IMG/VR virus record: IMGVR_UViG_2660238462_000002
Direction: 5' to 3' (one strand)
DNA length: 14,514 nt
DNA from: a virus
Lineage: Duplodnaviria > Heunggongvirae > Uroviricota > Caudoviricetes
Part shown: in pieces, positions 2-11,344 of the stretch
Layout: each line of letters starts with the position of its first letter
Position numbering within the stretch: position 1 is the stretch's first letter
Position numbers and translations under genes: made by a program
Notes under the pieces: model-generated
What the model was told of the DNA's origin: nothing
Database searches by the model: none
Seen by the model: the letters and a program-made list of their open reading frames with translations, nothing else

Positions 2-1297
2 TTAATTTTTCATTGCTTCGTTATGGGGCATGGTTGGGGCAAACTCGCTTAACTGTGTATTTAACAAAGCTACCTGTGCATTATTGTTTTCAGACATCCA
101 TTTTCCGTATACCTGAAATACCATTTGCGCATCTGCATGGCCCATCTGGTTTGCTATAAATGCCGGGTTAGCACCAGCTGTCAGCGACCAGCAGGCATAA
201 GTATGTCTCGACTGATATGATTTTCGATGGCGGAGTCCGGCACGTTTTATCGCTGCGTCCCACATCTGCCTTATTGAGTCAACGGTAAAATGGTCACCAT
301 AATTTTTTACTCTCGCTGACACTTCAGGTTGAAAAACAAAGGTGCATTTATGTTTTTCTGTTCTGCCATACTCTCTGAGGTGAACATCAATGATATGCTC
401 TTTGCTCAGTCTCGTTAATGTCATCTGACTCCGGAGAGCGTCGATTGCTGGCTTAATAAGATGAATGACCCGATTGGTTCCCGCCTGTGTTTTTGGTACC
501 GTGAAACGGTCTTTTGCTAAATTTCTCCTGATCATCATTGTTCCATTTTTCAGATCTATGTCCTCCCATCCAAGTGCACACAGCTCACCAGGGCGAACGC
601 CAGTATAAACAGAAACACACCATAAATTTTTGGCTTGCTGATTTCTGCACGCATCGATAAGACGGATGAATTCCTCCCGCGAAAGAGGATCCGGAATGGT
701 TCTTGATTCCTTTAATGGCGAGATCCCCTTAAACGGGTTATCTGCCAGGTAACCGTTATCAACACCAAACTGGAACACGGCGTTAAGATTTGTCATGTAA
801 TTATTTACAGTTACAGCCGATCTCCCTGGTTGTGTAACAATATAGTTACTTTTGGGGATCTGGTATCCAGTCAGTAGCTCTTTACGAACCTCCAGTAATT
901 TTTCTTTATTAATCGATGAGGCAAGATTTTTTTCACCGATTATGCTCAGGATATTTTTGATGACGGCACGGTATGTGTTGAGTGATGTTTTTGCGACTTC
1001 AGTTTCTTTCAGTGCCAGAAATTTTTCAGCCAGTTCTTTTATGGTTAAATCTTGTCGGGTCTCACCAAATTTTTCCAGATTGCGTGAGGAGGGAAACTGT
1101 TTTGCATAGTCGAAAACACCAGTTTTTATTGCGTAACAAACAGAGGCGCGTAGCTCACCTGCAACGCGCCTGTTTTTTGCTGTGTCAGGAACCCCCAGGT
1201 TTTCCCTGACTCTTACGCCTTTATAAACAAACCAGATACGTAATTTCCCTCCATGGTTTTCCACGCCTGTCGGATATTTCATTTCAATTTCTCTCAT
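2..1297 (-). CDS. int: Tyrosine recombinase / phage integrase (IntR/IntS-like)
   Basis: 431-aa ORF whose C-terminal region carries a tyrosine-recombinase-like signature (RHTYACW, ANQMGHAD), and whose N-terminus (KYPTGVE...LRIWF) resembles the Rac/CPS-53 integrase family. Sits directly downstream of an excisionase-like gene. True start may be the ATG at 1282 (MKYPTG...). Confidence 0.9.
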   Translation of the reverse strand: MREIEMKYPTGVENHGGKLRIWFVYKGVRVRENLGVPDTAKNRRVAGELRASVCYAIKTGVFDYAKQFPSSRNLEKFGETRQDLTIKELAEKFLALKETEVAKTSLNTYRAVIKNILSIIGEKNLASSINKEKLLEVRKELLTGYQIPKSNYIVTQPGRSAVTVNNYMTNLNAVFQFGVDNGYLADNPFKGISPLKESRTIPDPLSREEFIRLIDACRNQQAKNLWCVSVYTGVRPGELCALGWEDIDLKNGTMMIRRNLAKDRFTVPKTQAGTNRVIHLIKPAIDALRSQMTLTRLSKEHIIDVHLREYGRTEKHKCTFVFQPEVSARVKNYGDHFTVDSIRQMWDAAIKRAGLRHRKSYQSRHTYACWSLTAGANPAFIANQMGHADAQMVFQVYGKWMSENNNAQVALLNTQLSEFAPTMPHNEAMKN

Positions 1298-1640: not shown

Positions 1641-4112
1641 TTAAGAATCAGCCTGACTCGGGATCAGTTTTTGCCAGATAACTGAAACGTATTTTGCCTG
1701 GTAACGGGCGTCATCAAGTGCATTATGGCGCTCACCTTCGAATGGAATAGCCGTTCTGGCATCGAAGTCTATGGCTTTCCCCAGCTCAACGATTGTGCGT
1801 ACATCGCGATCGTTGTAGTAACGCCACGGGCAGGGGATCCCCTGCCGTTCGTATGAACGGCGCAAAATCGTGTTGTCGAAGTTGGCTCCATTTCCCCAGA
1901 CCTGAACAAAAAATTCACCGGAGTTTTCGTCGATAAATTCCCACAATTGTAACAGTGCATCATCTAACGGGATTTCATCGGTCATAATGGCAGATTGCGC
2001 TTCGCGTGATTGCTTAAGCCACCATTTAATGGTGTCCCGATCAATGACTCCGCCAGCAGTTTCCAGATCGATAGTCTTACTAAATTCCGGTCCCATATCT
2101 CCGGTTTGCGGATCGAAAAATATTGCACCTATTGAGATGATCGGGGCATCAGGATTTTTTCCCATGGTTTCAAGGTCGATCATTAGATGGTCACACGTCC
2201 TGCTGGTGGATGTGATTTCTTGATGACCGTTCACCTTAATTGAGTGATCTGCCGTCTCGCCAGTTTCATTATCGCTATCGTGATGCTGATTGCCGCCAGT
2301 GTTCTCCTTGTGTGGATGTTCAGCGCCTTCCATTTCCTCCGGATCATCTTCCTGAACTTCAATCTGATACTCTTCATCGAATGTTTCCTGGTATGTTGCG
2401 TCGCCCATTACCGCGCCACAATCAGGGCAGTTGCCGCCGCCGGTCTGACCGCAGGCGGTGCAGACTTTTTCCACTTCCTGTTGCGCCACTGATTCAGGCT
2501 GTTTCGTTTCTGGCTCGTTTTGTAACGCATTTGGGCTGTTTTGTTCCGCTTTTTGGTAGTTCCGTTCCGATTCATGCTGGTTCTGGTTCACAGAATCGCG
2601 GGTCTGGATCCCCTTAACCCATTTCGGATCATTCGGGTCACTAATCCCTTCAACAAATTCACCACGTGATGCAGCAAGCAACTTATCGGCGTCAGGCTGG
2701 ATGATATTGGCTGCCTGCATAATTTTGTTTACTTCGTCAGCGGTAACTTTTATCGGCTCTGGTTGTTCTGAATCTTCAGCGGTATCTACATTTTGCGGTA
2801 AGCCCGTGTATGTGCCATTTTTTCGGGCAAAATATTCTTCTTTTGTGATTTCAGTGGCGCCAGCAGCCAGTGCCTTATCCAGACCAGAAAGTTTGTTTGC
2901 GCGACCGTATTTTTCTCCGTCCTTATCTGCGAAGAGGAAATAGAACGGCCCCTCACGCTCTACAGATGGTTCAGCTTCCGGCGCGGTTTCATTTTTTGGG
3001 ATATCAGATACCTCAGTTTCCACTGCATCAGTTTGTGTTTCTGATGACTGGAGAACATCAACAGTGCCCAGGTCTGTTTCTTCATTCTCAAACACGCCCT
3101 TTGTCGTCAGGTATTCGCAGATATATTTGTTCAGTGCTACGGGATCTTTGTGAATGTCGATCGGACGCTCACGGACAAGGCCAAAAATAGTTTGGCGGTC
3201 GTAGCGAAGGGCATCAGGCTGTTTGCGCATTGATGCCGAGATACGCTTCCAGTCTTCGCGGTCGTTGTCGATAACTTCATTTTTTGCCCAGCGATGGATG
3301 CTGCCGTCAATGTTTCCGGCATCCACATCACCAGGCCAGAGAGCGTAGGCCAGTTCGTCATCCAGTGTTTTCCATGTCTGCTTGTATTCGCGATGAATGG
3401 CAGCAATGACCGGGCTGATTTTTCCTGTTGAATTTTCAGTGTACTGTTGATTGGCTCTGGCGCGGGCGAGATCAACAACAGACGTGTATTTTCCGGTTTC
3501 CTTGCGTTCACCTTCGCGACGTTTTTTCCAGATGCGCATCTCTGCCTGAATTTCGGGCCATTTAGCACCAGGAATACATTTATGCTTAACCCACCCAATG
3601 GCGTGCAACTTAAGCTCCGGATACATGGCGTTAACTTCTGGCATTTTCATCAACGCTTCAACGATATGTCCGTCGAATGTTGCCATGTCTTCCTGCAACA
3701 ATTCCTGTGCGCTAATAACCATATCAACGGTGATGTTTTCACATGTGTCGAACTTAACCATGACAGCGTTCTGTACTTCAGGGGCCAGCTTGTCAAAAGT
3801 GACGTTCATCGGATCGGATTCAGTCTCAACCGGGACAAAAGAAGCAGACTCCTCATCCCAGCGGTTTTCCTGCATATATTCAGCATCCCATGAATCGAGG
3901 GCAGGGCGGGGTATGCCAGGTTTATCCTCGCAGACAATAAATTTATAAGCGCAGTCCTGAGCAGCCGGATAATGTTCCAGGAATTGCCAGTGAAATTTTG
4001 CTCGAGCACGGCGTTCGTCGCCAGCTTCAATGGCTGTGGCTACAGCCACAGCGCCTTCTTCCCTTGTTGCCAGTTCGTCAGGAATAGCGGCGCAAATAAA
4101 GACTTTACTCAT
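1641..4112 (-). CDS. Large prophage exonuclease-like protein (823 aa) with C-terminal DEDDh 3'-5' exonuclease domain; of the kind often annotated exodeoxyribonuclease VIII
   Basis: C-terminal motifs HLMIDLETMG (Exo I), VWGNGANFDNTIL (Exo II) and HNALDDARY (Exo III). Central CTACGQ...CPDCG zinc-ribbon motif flanked by highly acidic low-complexity sequence. Start chosen at ATG 4112 (MSKVF...) because GAGG lies 9 nt upstream; the ORF track start at 4148 has no ribosome-binding site. Confidence 0.8.
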   Translation of the reverse strand: MSKVFICAAIPDELATREEGAVAVATAIEAGDERRARAKFHWQFLEHYPAAQDCAYKFIVCEDKPGIPRPALDSWDAEYMQENRWDEESASFVPVETESDPMNVTFDKLAPEVQNAVMVKFDTCENITVDMVISAQELLQEDMATFDGHIVEALMKMPEVNAMYPELKLHAIGWVKHKCIPGAKWPEIQAEMRIWKKRREGERKETGKYTSVVDLARARANQQYTENSTGKISPVIAAIHREYKQTWKTLDDELAYALWPGDVDAGNIDGSIHRWAKNEVIDNDREDWKRISASMRKQPDALRYDRQTIFGLVRERPIDIHKDPVALNKYICEYLTTKGVFENEETDLGTVDVLQSSETQTDAVETEVSDIPKNETAPEAEPSVEREGPFYFLFADKDGEKYGRANKLSGLDKALAAGATEITKEEYFARKNGTYTGLPQNVDTAEDSEQPEPIKVTADEVNKIMQAANIIQPDADKLLAASRGEFVEGISDPNDPKWVKGIQTRDSVNQNQHESERNYQKAEQNSPNALQNEPETKQPESVAQQEVEKVCTACGQTGGGNCPDCGAVMGDATYQETFDEEYQIEVQEDDPEEMEGAEHPHKENTGGNQHHDSDNETGETADHSIKVNGHQEITSTSRTCDHLMIDLETMGKNPDAPIISIGAIFFDPQTGDMGPEFSKTIDLETAGGVIDRDTIKWWLKQSREAQSAIMTDEIPLDDALLQLWEFIDENSGEFFVQVWGNGANFDNTILRRSYERQGIPCPWRYYNDRDVRTIVELGKAIDFDARTAIPFEGERHNALDDARYQAKYVSVIWQKLIPSQADS

Positions 4113-4204: not shown

Positions 4205-4396
4205 TTAAAGACCTGCCGGGATTTCGATATTATCCTGGTGAATAACTTTATCGACCGGGTAACAGTTACCGGGAATTTTCTGTTCGGTTGCTGCAGTCAT
4301 ACACTCCTGCATTGTCCTGTGAACACTGACTGCAATATCAACTGGCTCTCCGGAAACAAGAAAAACTGTCAGAACAAGCACAAATGCTGAATTCAT
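4205..4396 (-). CDS. ydfD: Small secreted/membrane protein with N-terminal signal peptide (63 aa), YdfD-like by position
   Basis: MNSAFVLVLTVFLVSG hydrophobic N-terminus; AAGGA 8 nt upstream of ATG 4396; start overlaps the dicB-like stop. Gene symbol is by position downstream of dicB as in Qin. Confidence 0.55.
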   Translation of the reverse strand: MNSAFVLVLTVFLVSGEPVDIAVSVHRTMQECMTAATEQKIPGNCYPVDKVIHQDNIEIPAGL

Positions 4397-4581
4397 TGTG
4401 CACATCCTTTTGGCATCAGACGTAAACGAGCCAGCATTGAAACAATGCATATTTTATTTAATAGCTCCCGTTCTTGTTTTCTCTTGTTAATGGCATCTTC
4501 AGTAAATACTGGGTTACTGATAGTGACACCAATTTCAAAACAACCTTCAGACGTATTAACGTTTGGTAATAACGTTTTCAT
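4393..4581 (-). CDS. dicB: Cell division inhibitor DicB-like (62 aa)
   Basis: Translation MKTLLPNVNTSEGCFEIGVTISNPVFTEDAINKRKQERELLNKICIVSMLARLRLMPKGCAQ matches my recollection of Qin DicB. GAGGA 8 nt upstream of ATG 4581. Lies just downstream of a DicF-like sRNA. The longer ORF starting at 4686 is rejected. Confidence 0.75.
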   Translation of the reverse strand: MKTLLPNVNTSEGCFEIGVTISNPVFTEDAINKRKQERELLNKICIVSMLARLRLMPKGCAQ

Positions 4582-4755
4582 TATCGCGTCCTCAACAATG
4601 AATTTTGTGATGCAGTGCCTGGTGCCTCCAGGTGACGTTAACCAGTTAACAATTAACGCCGGATACAGAGAATCCACCCATAACACTGTTTTTGGTTTTA
4701 ACTGTTCCGCGTGCGCTCAGCCGCATTCACCACATCACAAAATTCACTTTAAAAA

Positions 4756-4808
4756 GGGCGGCAGAGCAGTCACGGAGTAAAACTGATACCGCCAAACGTC
4801 ACCAGAAA
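4756..4808 (-). ncRNA. dicF: DicF-like small regulatory RNA (about 53 nt) with intrinsic terminator hairpin and U-tract
   Basis: Minus-strand sequence TTTCTGGTGACGTTTGGCGGTATCAGTTTTACTCCGTGACTGCTCTGCCGCCC followed by TTTTT matches recalled DicF. The 3' hairpin GGGCGGCAGAGCAG/CTGCTCTGCCGCCC is followed by the U-run at plus 4751-4755. Context is between ydfC-like and dicB-like genes, as in Qin. Confidence 0.7.
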
Positions 4809-5148
4809 ATTGATAACAGAGGGCGTTGCAGCGGGGTTGTCACTTAAGCGTATGGTCAACCTGACAACCCGGTGTCCTCAACGGGGAAGAAATAACCCCG
4901 CCATACTTACCGCCGCACCATTTCGCGGGTTGCCACAACCGGAAGCGCACGGTCGACGAAAATTTAACGACAGGCTATCTATGAACCAGCTACCTCGCCG
5001 TGCGCTTTCGCGTTATGGTCTGACTTTTCAGGGAAATATCCTTTCAGTAAACTGTCAGTGCCGGATGCTCACCCGTGTCCGGCGCACGCACTCCACCTCA
5101 CCCGTGGAGAACTCCTTAATTACCAACCTTAGCTTCGTTGGTTAGCTA

Positions 5149-5367
5149 TTAACGCGGGTATGTAATCATTCTGGCAATGCTTAATGCCGCTGCTTTTTCC
5201 AGATTGGTGATATCCTGCTCCAGAGCGGACAGATTTTCAGCCTGCTTAGCCCTGGCTTCATTGGCCCATTTCAGATCCTGCGCTGCATTAATTTTCTGGC
5301 GCATCCACTCATAAAGTTCATCATCGGTATAGTCTGGCGCGATGATGACGGGTTCTCGTTTCTGCAT
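5149..5367 (-). CDS. ydfC: Small hypothetical prophage protein (72 aa), YdfC-like by size and position
   Basis: ORF with GAGGA 9 nt upstream of ATG 5367; first gene upstream of the DicF spacer in the leftward operon. Confidence 0.5.
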   Translation of the reverse strand: MQKREPVIIAPDYTDDELYEWMRQKINAAQDLKWANEARAKQAENLSALEQDITNLEKAAALSIARMITYPR

Positions 5368-5974: not shown

Positions 5975-6613
5975 TTAAATATCTTGTTGAATTTTAAAGC
6001 ATACGCCCAATATGCAAGATAGATCATCCAGCATAATTGAAGGGTAGCGAGGATTCGTGGGGACTAAAAGAATATCCGGCCCTTCTATCTCCAGTTTACG
6101 AATGACAGGTGTTGTGGTCCCTTTGGGTAAGGCAAGGACAATATTTCCTGGTTGTACGGTTCGATCGGGATCAACAAAAACTGTTGAACCATTTGGGATG
6201 GAAACTCCCCCACCAGATGTTGACATACTGTCACTCTCTAGAACAACTGCAAAGGTATTGACCGGGATTTCTCCGACAAGCTGCACACAAGAGGTTATTG
6301 AGGAATTTTTCATATAATCACTCCAGCTTGCTGCCTGCTGAAGTGATAGTAGCGGAACCGTTTTTATCGGCGGTAAAGATAGATCAAGCGAATCACCTGT
6401 ATTTAACTCTCCTCCATTAAGAAGCCAATTTTCGTTTACTTTCAATATTTTTGCCAGTGAACTTATGTAACGCGAGGACGGCGCTCCTCCACCGTTCATC
6501 CATTGACTTACGGAGCCTTTTGATGCGCCAGTGCCATTGACAAGGTCTTTGCCTTTCAGGTTTAGCGCATGCATACGTTGGGTTATGCGTTCAGATATAG
6601 TTTGCTTGCTCAT
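5975..6613 (-). CDS. CI-type prophage repressor (HTH N-terminus plus LexA/S24 peptidase-like C-terminus), 212 aa
   Basis: N-terminal helix-turn-helix region (QRMHALNLKGKDLV...GSVSQW), C-terminal S24-like region (ESDSMSTSGG ... IRKLE). Divergent from a Cro-like gene. Confidence 0.85.
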   Translation of the reverse strand: MSKQTISERITQRMHALNLKGKDLVNGTGASKGSVSQWMNGGGAPSSRYISSLAKILKVNENWLLNGGELNTGDSLDLSLPPIKTVPLLSLQQAASWSDYMKNSSITSCVQLVGEIPVNTFAVVLESDSMSTSGGGVSIPNGSTVFVDPDRTVQPGNIVLALPKGTTTPVIRKLEIEGPDILLVPTNPRYPSIMLDDLSCILGVCFKIQQDI

Positions 6614-9652: not shown

Positions 9653-9821
9653 TTTTGGTTCAACTAAATACAACGTCAGTTTTGAAGAATGGCATGAACT
9701 GTTAATGGACTATGCAGAGTTACGTGGTGGCAGTGCTGCTGATGCTGAAGCATGGCGTGATGATTATGAAGCAGGAAAAACTCCGGTCGAAGCATATTGT
9801 GATGAGTGGGGCGATGAATGA
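9645..9821 (+). CDS. Small acidic protein (58 aa), overlapping the upstream gene (ATGGCTGA)
   Basis: Hand-translated: MADFGSTKYNVSFEEWHELLMDYAELRGGSAADAEAWRDDYEAGKTPVEAYCDEWGDE. About 16 acidic against 4 basic residues. Start overlaps the stop of the 60-aa gene and its stop overlaps the next ATG (ATGA). Confidence 0.5.
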   Translation: MADFGSTKYNVSFEEWHELLMDYAELRGGSAADAEAWRDDYEAGKTPVEAYCDEWGDE

Positions 9822-10075
9822 GCGAGGTTAATTATCAGGAAGGGCATGAAACGGCGGGGCAAGCAAAAACAGTGGCATGGCGATATCGCTACGTGAAAAA
9901 AAAGGCGTTACGGACTTTCAGGGGAAGTAGTGGTCTGGTGACTGGAAATATGTACCGAAAAAAGAGGATTGTAACGACAGGCCGAACTATGAAATTCAGG
10001 CCTTATTCACTGCCCCGCCAGTCCCGGTTACATCAGAAGAACTGGTTAAAGCTGTGCACTTTTATGAACAACTAA
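9818..10075 (+). pseudogene. Possible disrupted or frameshift-dependent ORF; the protein-like C-terminal part is in the -1 frame, ending at 10134
   Basis: The frame from ATG 9818 looks protein-like at first, then turns basic and low-complexity. The -1 frame from 9930 to 10134 reads as good protein (WSGDWKYVPKKEDCNDRPNYEIQALFTAPPVPVTSEELVKAVHFYEQLKRENPPASGNLITDSQIRQ) but has no start codon. Two A_AAA_AAG heptamers lie in the 0 frame at 9898-9904 and 9958-9964. Confidence 0.3.
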
Positions 10076-10304
10076 AACGCGAAAATCCACCAGCATCCGG
10101 AAACCTGATTACAGATTCCCAGATAAGGCAATGAGCTACCTGGCGCAGAACGGGCTGATAAGTATGGGGAATGTTTTACGATGAATATTTAGACTAAAGA
10201 GTTTGTAACGCTATGTAAGTGATTTTTTCTGGTTTAGATATTTATATGTCCGGCCAAATTGAGGTGTGTTTAAATGTAATTGCACATTGATTGTAGGAGG
10301 AATA

Positions 10305-10484
10305 ATGAAAAACGCATTGCAGTTTTTGTTTGTTGCGTTCTGGTTGTTCGTATCATGTATGCCCATCATCTTCACAGCAAGGTATATGGAAAAAGTTGAT
10401 GTTTTGATATTAATATTTGGATATATAAATGCCCTTTTTTTAGGGGTGTTCATGGCGGTCATGTGCATTGAATACTGGCGGTAA
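10305..10484 (+). CDS. Small hydrophobic membrane protein (59 aa, two predicted transmembrane segments) in an AT-rich cassette
   Basis: AGGAGG 4 nt upstream of ATG 10305. Sequence MKNALQFLFVAFWLFVSCMPIIF...ILIFGYINALFLGVFMAVMCI. Local composition is much more AT-rich than its surroundings. Confidence 0.5.
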   Translation: MKNALQFLFVAFWLFVSCMPIIFTARYMEKVDVLILIFGYINALFLGVFMAVMCIEYWR

Positions 10485-10686
10485 ATACAGCGAACGCCAT
10501 TGGTTTAGTTGGATATTTACTGTGCCGGACAAAAACGGTTTGCGGGGAAATCTTAGTTAAGTAGAATGACTGCGGGTGCTTGAGGCTATCTGTCTCAGGC
10601 ATGAACACCAAAAGGCAGATAGAGAAAAGCCCCAGTTAACATTACGCGTCCTGCAAGACGCTTAACATTAATCTGAGGCCATATCT

Positions 10687-10746
10687 ATGCGACACATAGA
10701 GATTAGCCTCTTACGGACCGAAAGGTCAAGGAGAAGCAGGCTATGA
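10687..10746 (+). CDS. Short leader ORF (19 codons) ending at the hok start codon; possible mok-like coupling ORF
   Basis: ATG 10687 with GAGG 9 nt upstream; its TGA stop overlaps the hok ATG (ATGA). Canonical mok is longer and overlaps hok, so this is tentative. Confidence 0.3.
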   Translation: MRHIEISLLRTERSRRSRL

Positions 10747-10898
10747 AGCAGCAAAAGGCGATGTTAATCGCCCTGATCGTCATCTGTTTAACCGTCATAG
10801 TGACGGCACTGGTAACGAGGAAAGACCTCTGCGAGGTACGAATCCGAACCGGCCAGACGGAGGTCGCTGTCTTCACAGCTTACGAACCTGAGGAGTAA
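10743..10898 (+). CDS. hok: Hok/Gef-family type I toxin (51 aa)
   Basis: MKQQKAMLIALIVICLTVIVTALVTRKDLCEVRIRTGQTEVAVFTAYEPEE has the Hok/Gef family signature (transmembrane helix, then RKDLCEV...TEVAVFTAYE) and appears identical or nearly so to HokD/RelF as I recall it. Absent from the ORF track because it is under 60 aa. Confidence 0.85.
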   Translation: MKQQKAMLIALIVICLTVIVTALVTRKDLCEVRIRTGQTEVAVFTAYEPEE

Positions 10899-10966
10899 GA
10901 GACCTGGCGGGGGAGAAATCCCTCGCCACCTCTGATGTGTCAGGCATCCTCAACGCACCCGCACGT

Positions 10967-10993
10967 AACCCGCTTCGGCGGGTTTTGTTTTTT
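10967..10993 (+). terminator. Rho-independent terminator downstream of hok
   Basis: AACCCGC-TTCG-GCGGGTT hairpin followed by TTTGTTTTTT. Confidence 0.8.
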
Positions 10994-11065
10994 CCTGGCA
11001 TTCTGGTTTACAATTCGCACGCCAGCCTGAACAACTGGCACCTGCTGCGCCAGCAGAGACAACCG

Positions 11066-11344
11066 ATGGCGCACGATACCAAATTACACAATTCTAATGA
11101 TTCTGCCGTCTTTGCCAGTAGGTGCGGACGGCGTTTTCACGCATTCAAATCAGACTGGTTCCAGCATCCTCCATGCACTGAAGAGCAGGCGGAATGGATA
11201 ATTCAGTGTTACCGCAGGCGCGGATACGAGGTTAAGAAAGCTCTTAGCCTCGACTACCGTCACTGGATAATCTCAGTCAGACTCCCTTACTCCGAACGCC
11301 CACCGCGTTCATCCCGCACATACCAGCAACGGATCTGGAGGTAA
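11066..11344 (+). CDS. Hypothetical Cys/His-containing protein (92 aa), in the position of Qin rem
   Basis: ATG 11066 is the first start after the hok terminator; the ORF-track start at 10937 would read through that terminator. Stop lies 1 nt before the YdfU-like GTG start. Confidence 0.5.
   Translation: MAHDTKLHNSNDSAVFASRCGRRFHAFKSDWFQHPPCTEEQAEWIIQCYRRRGYEVKKALSLDYRHWIISVRLPYSERPPRSSRTYQQRIWR

Follow-up and report, generated by a model that had tools for sequence, protein, structure and literature searches.

A candidate small membrane protein gene in a cassette upstream of hok in lambdoid prophages of Escherichia coli

A small open reading frame (ORF) upstream of the toxin gene hokD in a prophage of Escherichia coli is very likely a genuine protein-coding gene, as judged from the comparison of two diverged groups of sequences. 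The ORF is located at positions 10305–10484 on the plus strand of IMG/VR record IMGVR_UViG_2660238462_000002, a stretch of 14,514 nucleotides (hereafter the window, meaning the whole DNA analysed) that corresponds to the early-right (nin) region of a lambdoid prophage of the Qin/Rac type. It starts with ATG, comprises 59 codons and ends with a TAA stop, and its product, MKNALQFLFVAFWLFVSCMPIIFTARYMEKVDVLILIFGYINALFLGVFMAVMCIEYWR, is predicted to be a hydrophobic protein with two transmembrane helices. It is rather probable that this is a real, translated gene for a small membrane protein that is co-expressed with the early operon of the prophage. The initial annotation of this region had noted a perfect AGGAGG Shine-Dalgarno (SD) sequence in front of the ORF, and the motif is indeed present at 10295–10300, with a spacing of 4 nt to the ATG at 10305. 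The elements of the gene itself are as follows.

10295–10300, plus strand: SD sequence AGGAGG, read from the sequence; it is GTCGGAG in the degraded copy L089.
10305–10484, plus strand: very likely coding sequence of the 59-residue protein with two transmembrane helices, subfamily A (ORF list, homologue in subfamily B, codon signature, shuffle tests, AlphaFold2 hairpin).
10436–10442, plus strand: run of seven T residues (T7 run) inside the coding sequence, seen in the sequence and marked by frameshift variants in database copies.

The evidence for coding comes from homology searches, a kind of check that the initial annotation had proposed. An exhaustive HMMER (phmmer) search recovered a full-length homologue (P0043, 59 aa, MRKILMYLCISIWIVISCVPIILTSEYLTEASIMALMFGHANALCIGVFISIIYIECWR) that defines subfamily B, a group distinct from subfamily A of the window. 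The A and B proteins are 41% identical from end to end without gaps and have the same start, stop and length. Their DNA is 60% identical, with identities of 57.6, 72.9 and 47.5% at codon positions 1, 2 and 3, respectively. The proportion of nonsynonymous differences (pN) is 0.33 and that of synonymous differences (pS) is 0.72, which is saturated, giving a ratio of the two corresponding substitution rates (dN/dS) of about 0.19. When all six frames are compared, only that of 10305–10484 is free of stops in both A and B, and the other five are all interrupted in B. When the columns of the A/B codon alignment are shuffled, 1.5% of the trials have an open frame in A and 0.05% have one in both subfamilies (P = 0.0005), and the excess of mismatches at position 3 over those at position 2 has a shuffle P of 0.003. 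Among 21 B loci, the 180-nt ORF carries 3 rare variants, as against 28 in 620 nt of flanking sequence, and none of the 13 common variants falls inside the ORF. The consensus SD sequence is kept in all A haplotypes except a few. The codon-position signature, the shuffle tests and the deficit of variants in B together provide good evidence that the frame is maintained as a protein.

Two other readings of the same DNA were rejected. One is an antisense ORF of 85 aa (10211–10468, minus strand) that is annotated in phage PhiR42_1; the equivalent frame in B has several stops. The other is a 72-aa version with a GTG start at 10266, given in some GenBank records; homology with B starts at the ATG, and the SD sequence is placed for a start at 10305.

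Several observations weigh against a functional, translated gene. Within subfamily A, 31 haplotypes show six nonsynonymous changes and one synonymous change, which is near the neutral ratio of 4:1 and gives no signal of purifying selection; this sample was fetched by protein similarity, so that it is biased towards intact copies and holds little variation. Disrupted A copies occur in databases, with frameshifts in the T7 run, truncations and many junction fusions. A divergent copy in E. coli ECMA0423 (L089) has lost the SD sequence and carries three 1-nt deletions. Because hok and the flanking genes are intact in this copy, the small gene appears to be dispensable. The comparative test is a single deep comparison between two subfamilies in one genus, the SD sequence of subfamily B is weak as judged by eye, and the spacing of 4 nt between the SD sequence and the ATG in A is on the short side. 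Sequence searches of Pfam, NCBIfam, PHROGs, PADLOC and the PDB gave no match at a meaningful E-value and no functional lead, and a Foldseek search against BFVD gave a best E of 1.2 and no fold lead. Searches of the literature, both for the peptide and for small proteins encoded next to hok, left the gene undescribed, and the peptide is in no paper that they found.

Part of this evidence would suit an ORF that was once coding, or only seems to be so, and that persists untranslated and unselected in young prophage DNA. The six-to-one count of substitutions in A, the common frameshifted, truncated and fused copies, and the loss of both SD sequence and reading frame beside an intact hok in L089 all point in this direction. 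Furthermore, the ORF is never called by the Prokaryotic Genome Annotation Pipeline (PGAP) in the loci inspected, and its upstream neighbour in the window is itself a pseudogene. However, frame, length, start and stop have been kept between A and B at 60% nucleotide identity, with a coding-like codon signature and a pN well below pS; the ORF of B is devoid of common variants, and all but a few A haplotypes retain the consensus SD sequence. A non-functional relic is considered decidedly unlikely. The T7 run is a site of recurrent +1 and −1 frameshift variants in database copies, of which P0019, P0021, P0024 and P0025 have C-termini reading ...FFRGVHGGHVH; these variants may be either sequencing errors or real on/off variation.

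The initial annotation had also described two hydrophobic helices. Both of the stretches that it quoted are present in the product, and the hydropathy maxima and the AlphaFold2 helices agree with them. The protein has a grand average of hydropathicity (GRAVY) of 1.31 on the Kyte-Doolittle scale, with 19-residue maxima of 2.26 at residues 7–25 and 2.39 at residues 33–52. AlphaFold2 applied to an alignment of nine sequences predicts a helical hairpin composed of helices 2–26 and 32–58, with a mean predicted local distance difference test (pLDDT) score of 72.5. The N-terminus is basic, the loop is neutral or acidic and the C-terminus carries an Arg. This charge pattern suggests that both ends of the protein are cytoplasmic. 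The protein is probably a two-helix hairpin in the inner membrane with both termini in the cytoplasm.

Nineteen columns are invariant across the nine A and B sequences, including W13, S17, C18, P20, I21, I22, T24, F38, G39, N42, A43, L44, E56, W58 and R59. Those of helix 1 form a stripe (S17-C18-x-P20-I-I-x-T24, preceded by W13), those of helix 2 form another (F38-G39-x-x-N42-A43-L44, followed by the nearly invariant G47-V48-F49), and the C-terminal end is conserved as E-x-W-R. Invariant stripes of this kind are typical for helix-packing or oligomerisation surfaces. The stripes and their packing-like pattern favour a membrane-embedded accessory protein that may associate with itself or bind another membrane protein.

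The guanine-plus-cytosine (GC) fraction of the region is sharply lower than that of the neighbouring genes, as had been noted at the outset. It is 0.35–0.375 across 10101–10500, the lowest-GC part of the neighbourhood, as against 0.445–0.485 upstream and 0.52–0.58 downstream; the ORF itself has 0.367, the segment 10185–10527 has 0.356 and the whole window 0.48. Several other 200-nt segments of the stretch are equally GC-poor, so that the dip is real, not unique. The GC fraction at third codon positions (GC3) of the ORF is 0.51, which is higher than the window mean, and T occupies 54% of its second codon positions. The low GC is thus probably in large part a by-product of hydrophobic codons, and foreign AT-rich DNA is unsupported as its cause.

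Alignment with hok loci that lack subfamily A indicates that the ORF belongs to an inserted cassette, which separates the last nin-region gene from the hok promoter. In such loci, a 27-aa ORF overlaps the end of the upstream gene (ATGA) and leads straight on to the hok promoter, and homology to the window resumes at about 10527. The cassette and its flanking repeats are as follows.

10185–10527, plus strand: inserted cassette of about 340 bp, made up of a spacer, the SD sequence, the ORF and a 3' tail (alignment with hok loci L143, L168 and L186).
10229–10258, plus strand: left imperfect direct repeat, TGGTTTAGATATTTATATGTCCGGCCAAA (repeat search, family D1).
10501–10533, plus strand: right direct repeat, TGGTTTAGTTGGATATTTACTGTGCCGGACAAA, partly conserved downstream of B (repeat search, flank alignment).

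A gapped local alignment of the two flanking repeats has a score of 25, which is reached by 0.45% of shuffles. Homology between A and B runs about 27 nt beyond the stop codon.

The same slot is occupied by other small ORFs at other loci (L143, L149, L150, L141, L186, L221 and L222 were compared). One occupant is the 27-aa M(T/S)WPEALTTVGIAMAVALVVYSICRWG (MxWPEA...CRWG), which is left unannotated by PGAP and is fused to a DUF551 protein in some records. Another is the 34-aa MSDDISLAMEGALAVVAVVGVYCLVVFLMDRLGN (MSDDISL...LMDRLGN; WP_001278450.1), of which O157:H7 has up to 5 copies, and a third is a 29–30-aa protein, MVLVLKCALA..., which is related to the 34-aa protein but differs at the N-terminus; together these form a family of 29–34-aa peptides with the motif ...LMDRL(G/S)x. 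An SD-preceded small transmembrane ORF that ends 180–340 nt before hok is found in 49 of the 80 hokD loci of IMG/VR that were sampled (61%), compared with a background of 0.022 per equivalent window. Here an ORF was counted if it had an SD-like motif, a length of 20–80 aa and one hydrophobic window; the background was taken from elsewhere in the same loci, and the 80 loci are phylogenetically non-independent. Even so, at least three unrelated families of small transmembrane ORFs, the 59-aa hairpin among them, share one slot, and this is no effect of sampling. The fixed position before hok and the presence of other small membrane genes in the slot suggest that accessory genes acting on the membrane gather at a hot spot that has gone unrecognised.

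The signals that bear on the expression of the gene lie around hok.

10539–10567, plus strand: putative hok promoter, TTTGCG/TTGCGG, a spacing of 16–17 nt and TAGAAT, with a start at about 10574 (relaxed hexamer scan; it fits the start of the Rfam leader).
10574–10745, plus strand: hok mRNA leader/sok region (Rfam RF01794, 106.7 bits, E 7e-24, full length).
10687–10746, plus strand: mok-like leader ORF of 19 codons, whose TGA overlaps the hok ATG (ATGA), from translation.
10743–10898, plus strand: coding sequence of the HokD toxin, 51 aa (Pfam HOK_GEF E 1.2e-23; named hokD by PGAP).
10967–10984, plus strand: first intrinsic-terminator-like hairpin downstream of the small gene, after hok (terminator scan).

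A standard scan of 9900–11100 detects no sigma-70-like promoter. A relaxed scan, which recovers the hok promoter (itself a prediction with no mapped start site), finds none in 10185–10304; both are consensus scans, and unconventional promoters are beyond their reach. The terminator scan of 9900–11100 finds none between the ORF and hok. Because neither a convincing promoter of its own nor a terminator before hok was found, the small gene is probably read within the rightward early operon transcript. Upon induction, it would be transcribed with this operon, in the same stretch of transcript that reaches hok, and its product would be made at the same time as the prophage Hok. Translation from AGGAGG would be efficient and would be followed by insertion into the inner membrane, where the protein could self-associate or dock on another membrane protein through its conserved small/polar stripe. 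The protein would probably act as a dispensable membrane-level accessory in lytic growth, in membrane perturbation, lysis timing or the exclusion of other phages. The hokW gene of Sp5, a prophage hok at an equivalent position, is induced by mitomycin C in a RecA-dependent manner about 1 h before endolysin, and it doubles phage release (PMC8621323).

The initial annotation had called the region a moron. The element of insertion stands, given the extra 340 bp or so relative to related loci and the direct repeats; a promoter and a terminator of its own do not, and the base composition is an ambiguous sign of foreign origin. An autonomous transcription unit is accordingly unsupported, with no promoter found in the spacer and no terminator before hok. 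It is nevertheless possible, though unlikely, that the gene is expressed in the lysogen from a weak or unconventional promoter of its own and protects it, for example by blocking the entry of phage DNA (superinfection exclusion or defence). Small inner-membrane exclusion proteins encoded by morons exist, HK97 gp15 being an example. The inserted cassette, its flanking repeats and the consensus SD sequence would fit such a gene, and B is intact in a decayed prophage in 1045 genomes, where the adjoining integrase and hok are truncated. A TGnTATAAT-like element, judged by eye, lies about 75 nt upstream of B. However, the first T of its −10-like hexamer is C in 16 of the 21 loci, and the A spacer has no promoter-like site even at relaxed thresholds, nor does a terminator follow the ORF. 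PADLOC gives no match, and B may simply have persisted through clonal descent, as its locus differs by no more than 1% among nearly all of the genomes that carry it.

An independent membrane toxin of type I-like design, controlled by an antisense RNA and forming a second toxin-antitoxin locus beside hok, is extremely improbable. The size and hydrophobicity of the protein are toxin-like (59 aa, GRAVY 1.31, two hydrophobic segments), and a type I locus lies beside the gene in the prophage. A single transmembrane helix is usual for type I toxins, whereas two are predicted here. The search of the opposite strand for an antisense RNA, another check that had been proposed for this gene, came out negative: there is no Rfam family and no antisense terminator, and a single weak promoter-like site (4+4) is seen; a novel RNA family is beyond these scans. 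In E-value mode (E ≤ 1), Rfam returned for both strands of 10050–10620 only the hok leader and a chance match to a nematode snoRNA (RF01648, plus strand, 19.6 bits against a threshold of 48 bits, E 0.095). The fold of the 5' region is no more stable than those of shuffled sequences (z = −0.10), and the perfect consensus SD sequence is not sequestered.

The gene had further been placed immediately upstream of hok. It is upstream, though not immediately so, for the ORF stop lies 89 nt before the 5' end of the hok mRNA and 258 nt before the hok ATG at 10743. Because the ORF ends at 10484 and the hok leader starts at 10574, the ORF lies outside the hok/sok RNA module. The small gene is thus no component of that module. 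Hok, for its part, does not depend on the small gene. In every A locus with an alignable downstream flank, the hok leader follows. A full hok is found within 600 nt in 75 of 119 A loci, and the remainder includes the Qin arrangement, in which homology ends at 10744 and an insertion sequence (IS) element and a flxA-ydfV-relBE block precede hokD. Downstream of B, 55 nt past the stop, a 62-nt stretch is 81% identical to hok codons 23–43 (E 3e-12), so that the order of small gene and then hok is older than the split between A and B.

Some details of the hok region stand apart from the small gene. In PhiR42_1 (L002) and ATCC 8739 (L086), position 10744, at the start of hok, is followed by an ISNCY transposase fragment, ydfW, flxA, ydfV, relB, relE and hokD, and in K-12 (L224) homology to the window begins 14 nt before hokD. 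Because homology ends at 10744 in the Qin types and starts 14 nt before hokD in K-12, the K-12 relBE-hokD arrangement looks like an insertion that split the leader; its hokD is without sok and mok. Mok is a full-length protein of 68 aa that overlaps hok in L089, and positions 10679–10702 are rich in insertions and deletions among haplotypes, so that the mode of mok-hok coupling seems variable between near-identical loci.

The synteny raises the possibility that the small protein is a partner of Hok at the protein level, be it a sensitiser, an antidote or a lysis-timing factor, the two genes making one membrane module. The order of ORF and hok is ancient and occurs in both subfamilies, the hok leader follows A wherever the downstream flank is readable, and the two genes are on the same strand with no terminator between them. 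The slot holds a small transmembrane gene in 61% of the sampled prophage hokD loci versus about 2% in the background. In addition, prophage hok is made on induction and aids phage release (PMC8621323). Against a partnership, identical HokD is preceded by at least three unrelated cassettes, or by no cassette at all, without co-variation; subfamily A is carried by 15 of the 80 IMG/VR loci with identical HokD. Furthermore, hokD-like loci number 12169 places in 4938 genomes, compared with 1642 places in 1570 genomes for the ORF, and hence about 87% of them are without it. B has been kept where hok is destroyed, and L089 keeps hok where the ORF is destroyed. Neither plasmid-borne hok loci nor the others on chromosomes are known to need a protein partner. 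A specific partnership of the small protein with Hok is very unlikely because identical HokD has varied cassettes or none and because most hokD-like places lack the ORF.

The same material allows a bolder and likewise highly doubtful generalisation, in which the hok of lambdoid prophages is the constant half of a two-gene membrane module and an interchangeable small transmembrane cassette, from at least three unrelated families of which the 59-aa hairpin is one, is the variable half. If this were true, the small protein would tune pore formation by Hok, set when the membrane is first damaged and phage are released on induction, or affect resistance to Hok; protein modulators encoded next to the type I toxin on which they act would be a first.

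Subfamily A is present in 1570 of 5426 complete E. coli genomes (about 29%), at 1642 places, and its full-length matches to the 461-nt query are 93.9–100% identical. A sensitive search extends this to 1960 genomes with at least a partial A match; 392 matching records are only 60–80% identical, and those displayed match only the first 100 nt or so of the query, which is the tail of the upstream gene. Apart from numerous truncated or fused variants, the first homology search had returned only copies that are at least 92% identical, all of them in E. coli and Shigella. Subfamily B occurs in 1045 of the 5426 genomes (about 19%) and is at least 99% identical in almost all carriers. IMG/VR holds 185 loci of A and a single locus of B, the latter in the same chromosomal context as elsewhere. 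A is located in the nin region of Qin/Rac-type prophages, and B sits in the Rac attachment region, in what is left of a decayed prophage between ttcA and uspF-ompN. Carriers of A or B include O104:H4, ATCC 25922, ATCC 8739 and ST131; ATCC 25922 has allele 2 of A and, in its Seattle 1946 assembly, also B.

The remnant at the B locus (L091) contains a truncated integrase, an intact B, a 62-nt hok fragment (6235–6296) and ABC-3 (sitD-like) fragments. Many of its carriers are human clinical isolates, and uropathogenic and avian-pathogenic strains, ABU 83972 and ATCC 25922-type (Seattle 1946) strains are among the carriers.

No third subfamily was found by the exhaustive phmmer search, by a profile search, by tblastn against phage and plasmid sequences or by scans of GTDB representatives, IMG/VR and metagenomes. 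From these searches, A and B appear to constitute a new orphan family that is restricted to E. coli and Shigella. PGAP leaves the ORF of A unannotated in every RefSeq locus inspected, and no annotated feature lies under any displayed B match in the search tables. GenBank and UniProt entries for A and B, such as A0A1Q9L2W4 and A0A2S5RMW9, are labelled 'hypothetical protein' or 'putative membrane protein'. Neither subfamily is present in the Qin region or at the Rac right end of K-12 MG1655, the two regions compared. This absence from the corresponding K-12 regions may explain why surveys of small proteins have not named the gene.

The segments 10100–10560 and 9900–10760 of the window are 100% identical to E. 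coli O104:H4 2009EL-2071. Upstream of the ORF, the plus strand carries in order a cro-like gene, YdaT, replication, DUF977, methylase, ead/Ea22 and DUF7167 genes and a frameshifted pseudogene; after the ORF come hokD, the terminator-like hairpin, and the DUF968, RusA and antiterminator Q genes. The immediate upstream neighbour is the following.

9818–10184, plus strand: upstream nin-region gene, a frameshifted pseudogene whose tail reads ...AMSYLAQNGLISMGNVLR followed by a stop ending at 10184 (PGAP pseudogene call in the identical O104:H4 sequence).

This gene is intact (129 aa) in ATCC 25922, and unrelated genes take its place in other prophages. Its last 85 nt or so in the window diverge by up to 32%, more than any other part of the neighbourhood.

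Elsewhere in the window, a full-length match to the DicF small RNA (76.7 bits, E 8e-16) lies at 4756–4807 on the minus strand, antisense within an O-like replication/HTH gene (about 4368–5330, plus strand). It is 3.7 kb from dicB (844–1032, minus strand), with repressor and relBE genes between, and its position recalls lambda oop, not the K-12 ydfABC-dicF-dicB operon. A RelE/ParE-RelB type II toxin-antitoxin pair at 2554–3035 (minus strand) adjoins the cI-like repressor gene. This pair and hok/sok make two toxin-antitoxin modules within the window.

Small membrane proteins are systematically missed by annotation, and the two subfamilies are present in about 29% and 19% of complete E. coli genomes, reference and outbreak strains included. 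The hot spot suggested by the slot adjoins a toxin with a demonstrated effect on phage release. Should one of the slot proteins alter lysis timing, exclusion or the activity of Hok, this would open a tractable piece of new prophage biology; otherwise, the outcome is a corrected annotation.

Among known systems, the Hok/Gef type I toxins with sok (PF01848, RF01794) resemble the 59-aa gene in being small membrane peptides, here on the same strand and in the same region, and in A as well as in B there is a physical link between the gene and hok. However, the 59-aa protein is not homologous to Hok, has two helices compared with one in Hok, and is encoded outside the hok/sok RNA model. Its gene has an exposed consensus SD sequence, shows neither mok-like coupling nor a detected antisense RNA, and is missing from most hok loci.

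Class II holins and pinholins, which have two transmembrane helices and about 70 aa (e.g., S21 of phage 21), are hairpins of similar size, and helix 2 of the 59-aa protein carries a small-xxx-small stripe of G39, A43 and G47. In contrast to them, the 59-aa protein has no charged C-terminal tail, ending in I-E-Y-W-R with four residues after helix 2, and no dual-start motif, and the family searches gave no holin match. The gene is also outside the lysis cassette: the genes for holin and lysozyme lie about 7.5 kb downstream in the identical prophage of O104:H4, past Q and tRNA genes. Compared with classical morons, which have a promoter and a terminator of their own, only the insertion is shared, as neither signal was found for the 59-aa gene.

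The other ORFs of the slot (the 34-aa WP_001278450.1, the 27-aa ORF and the 29–30-aa ORFs) occupy the same place, after the last nin gene and before the hok promoter, and are likewise hydrophobic and uncharacterised, with a strong SD sequence or ATGA coupling. They are unrelated to the 59-aa protein in sequence, shorter, and have one helix, not two. Small inner-membrane proteins of prophages and phages such as HK97 gp15, T4 Imm, Qin/Rac YdfD, DicB and KilR show no detected relationship to the 59-aa protein in sequence or fold. They resemble it in being short and hydrophobic and in being encoded in a mosaic, non-essential lambdoid region, where the 59-aa gene is likewise inserted and, by its disrupted copies, dispensable. 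The gene is previously uncharacterised and belongs to this broad class of small prophage membrane proteins.

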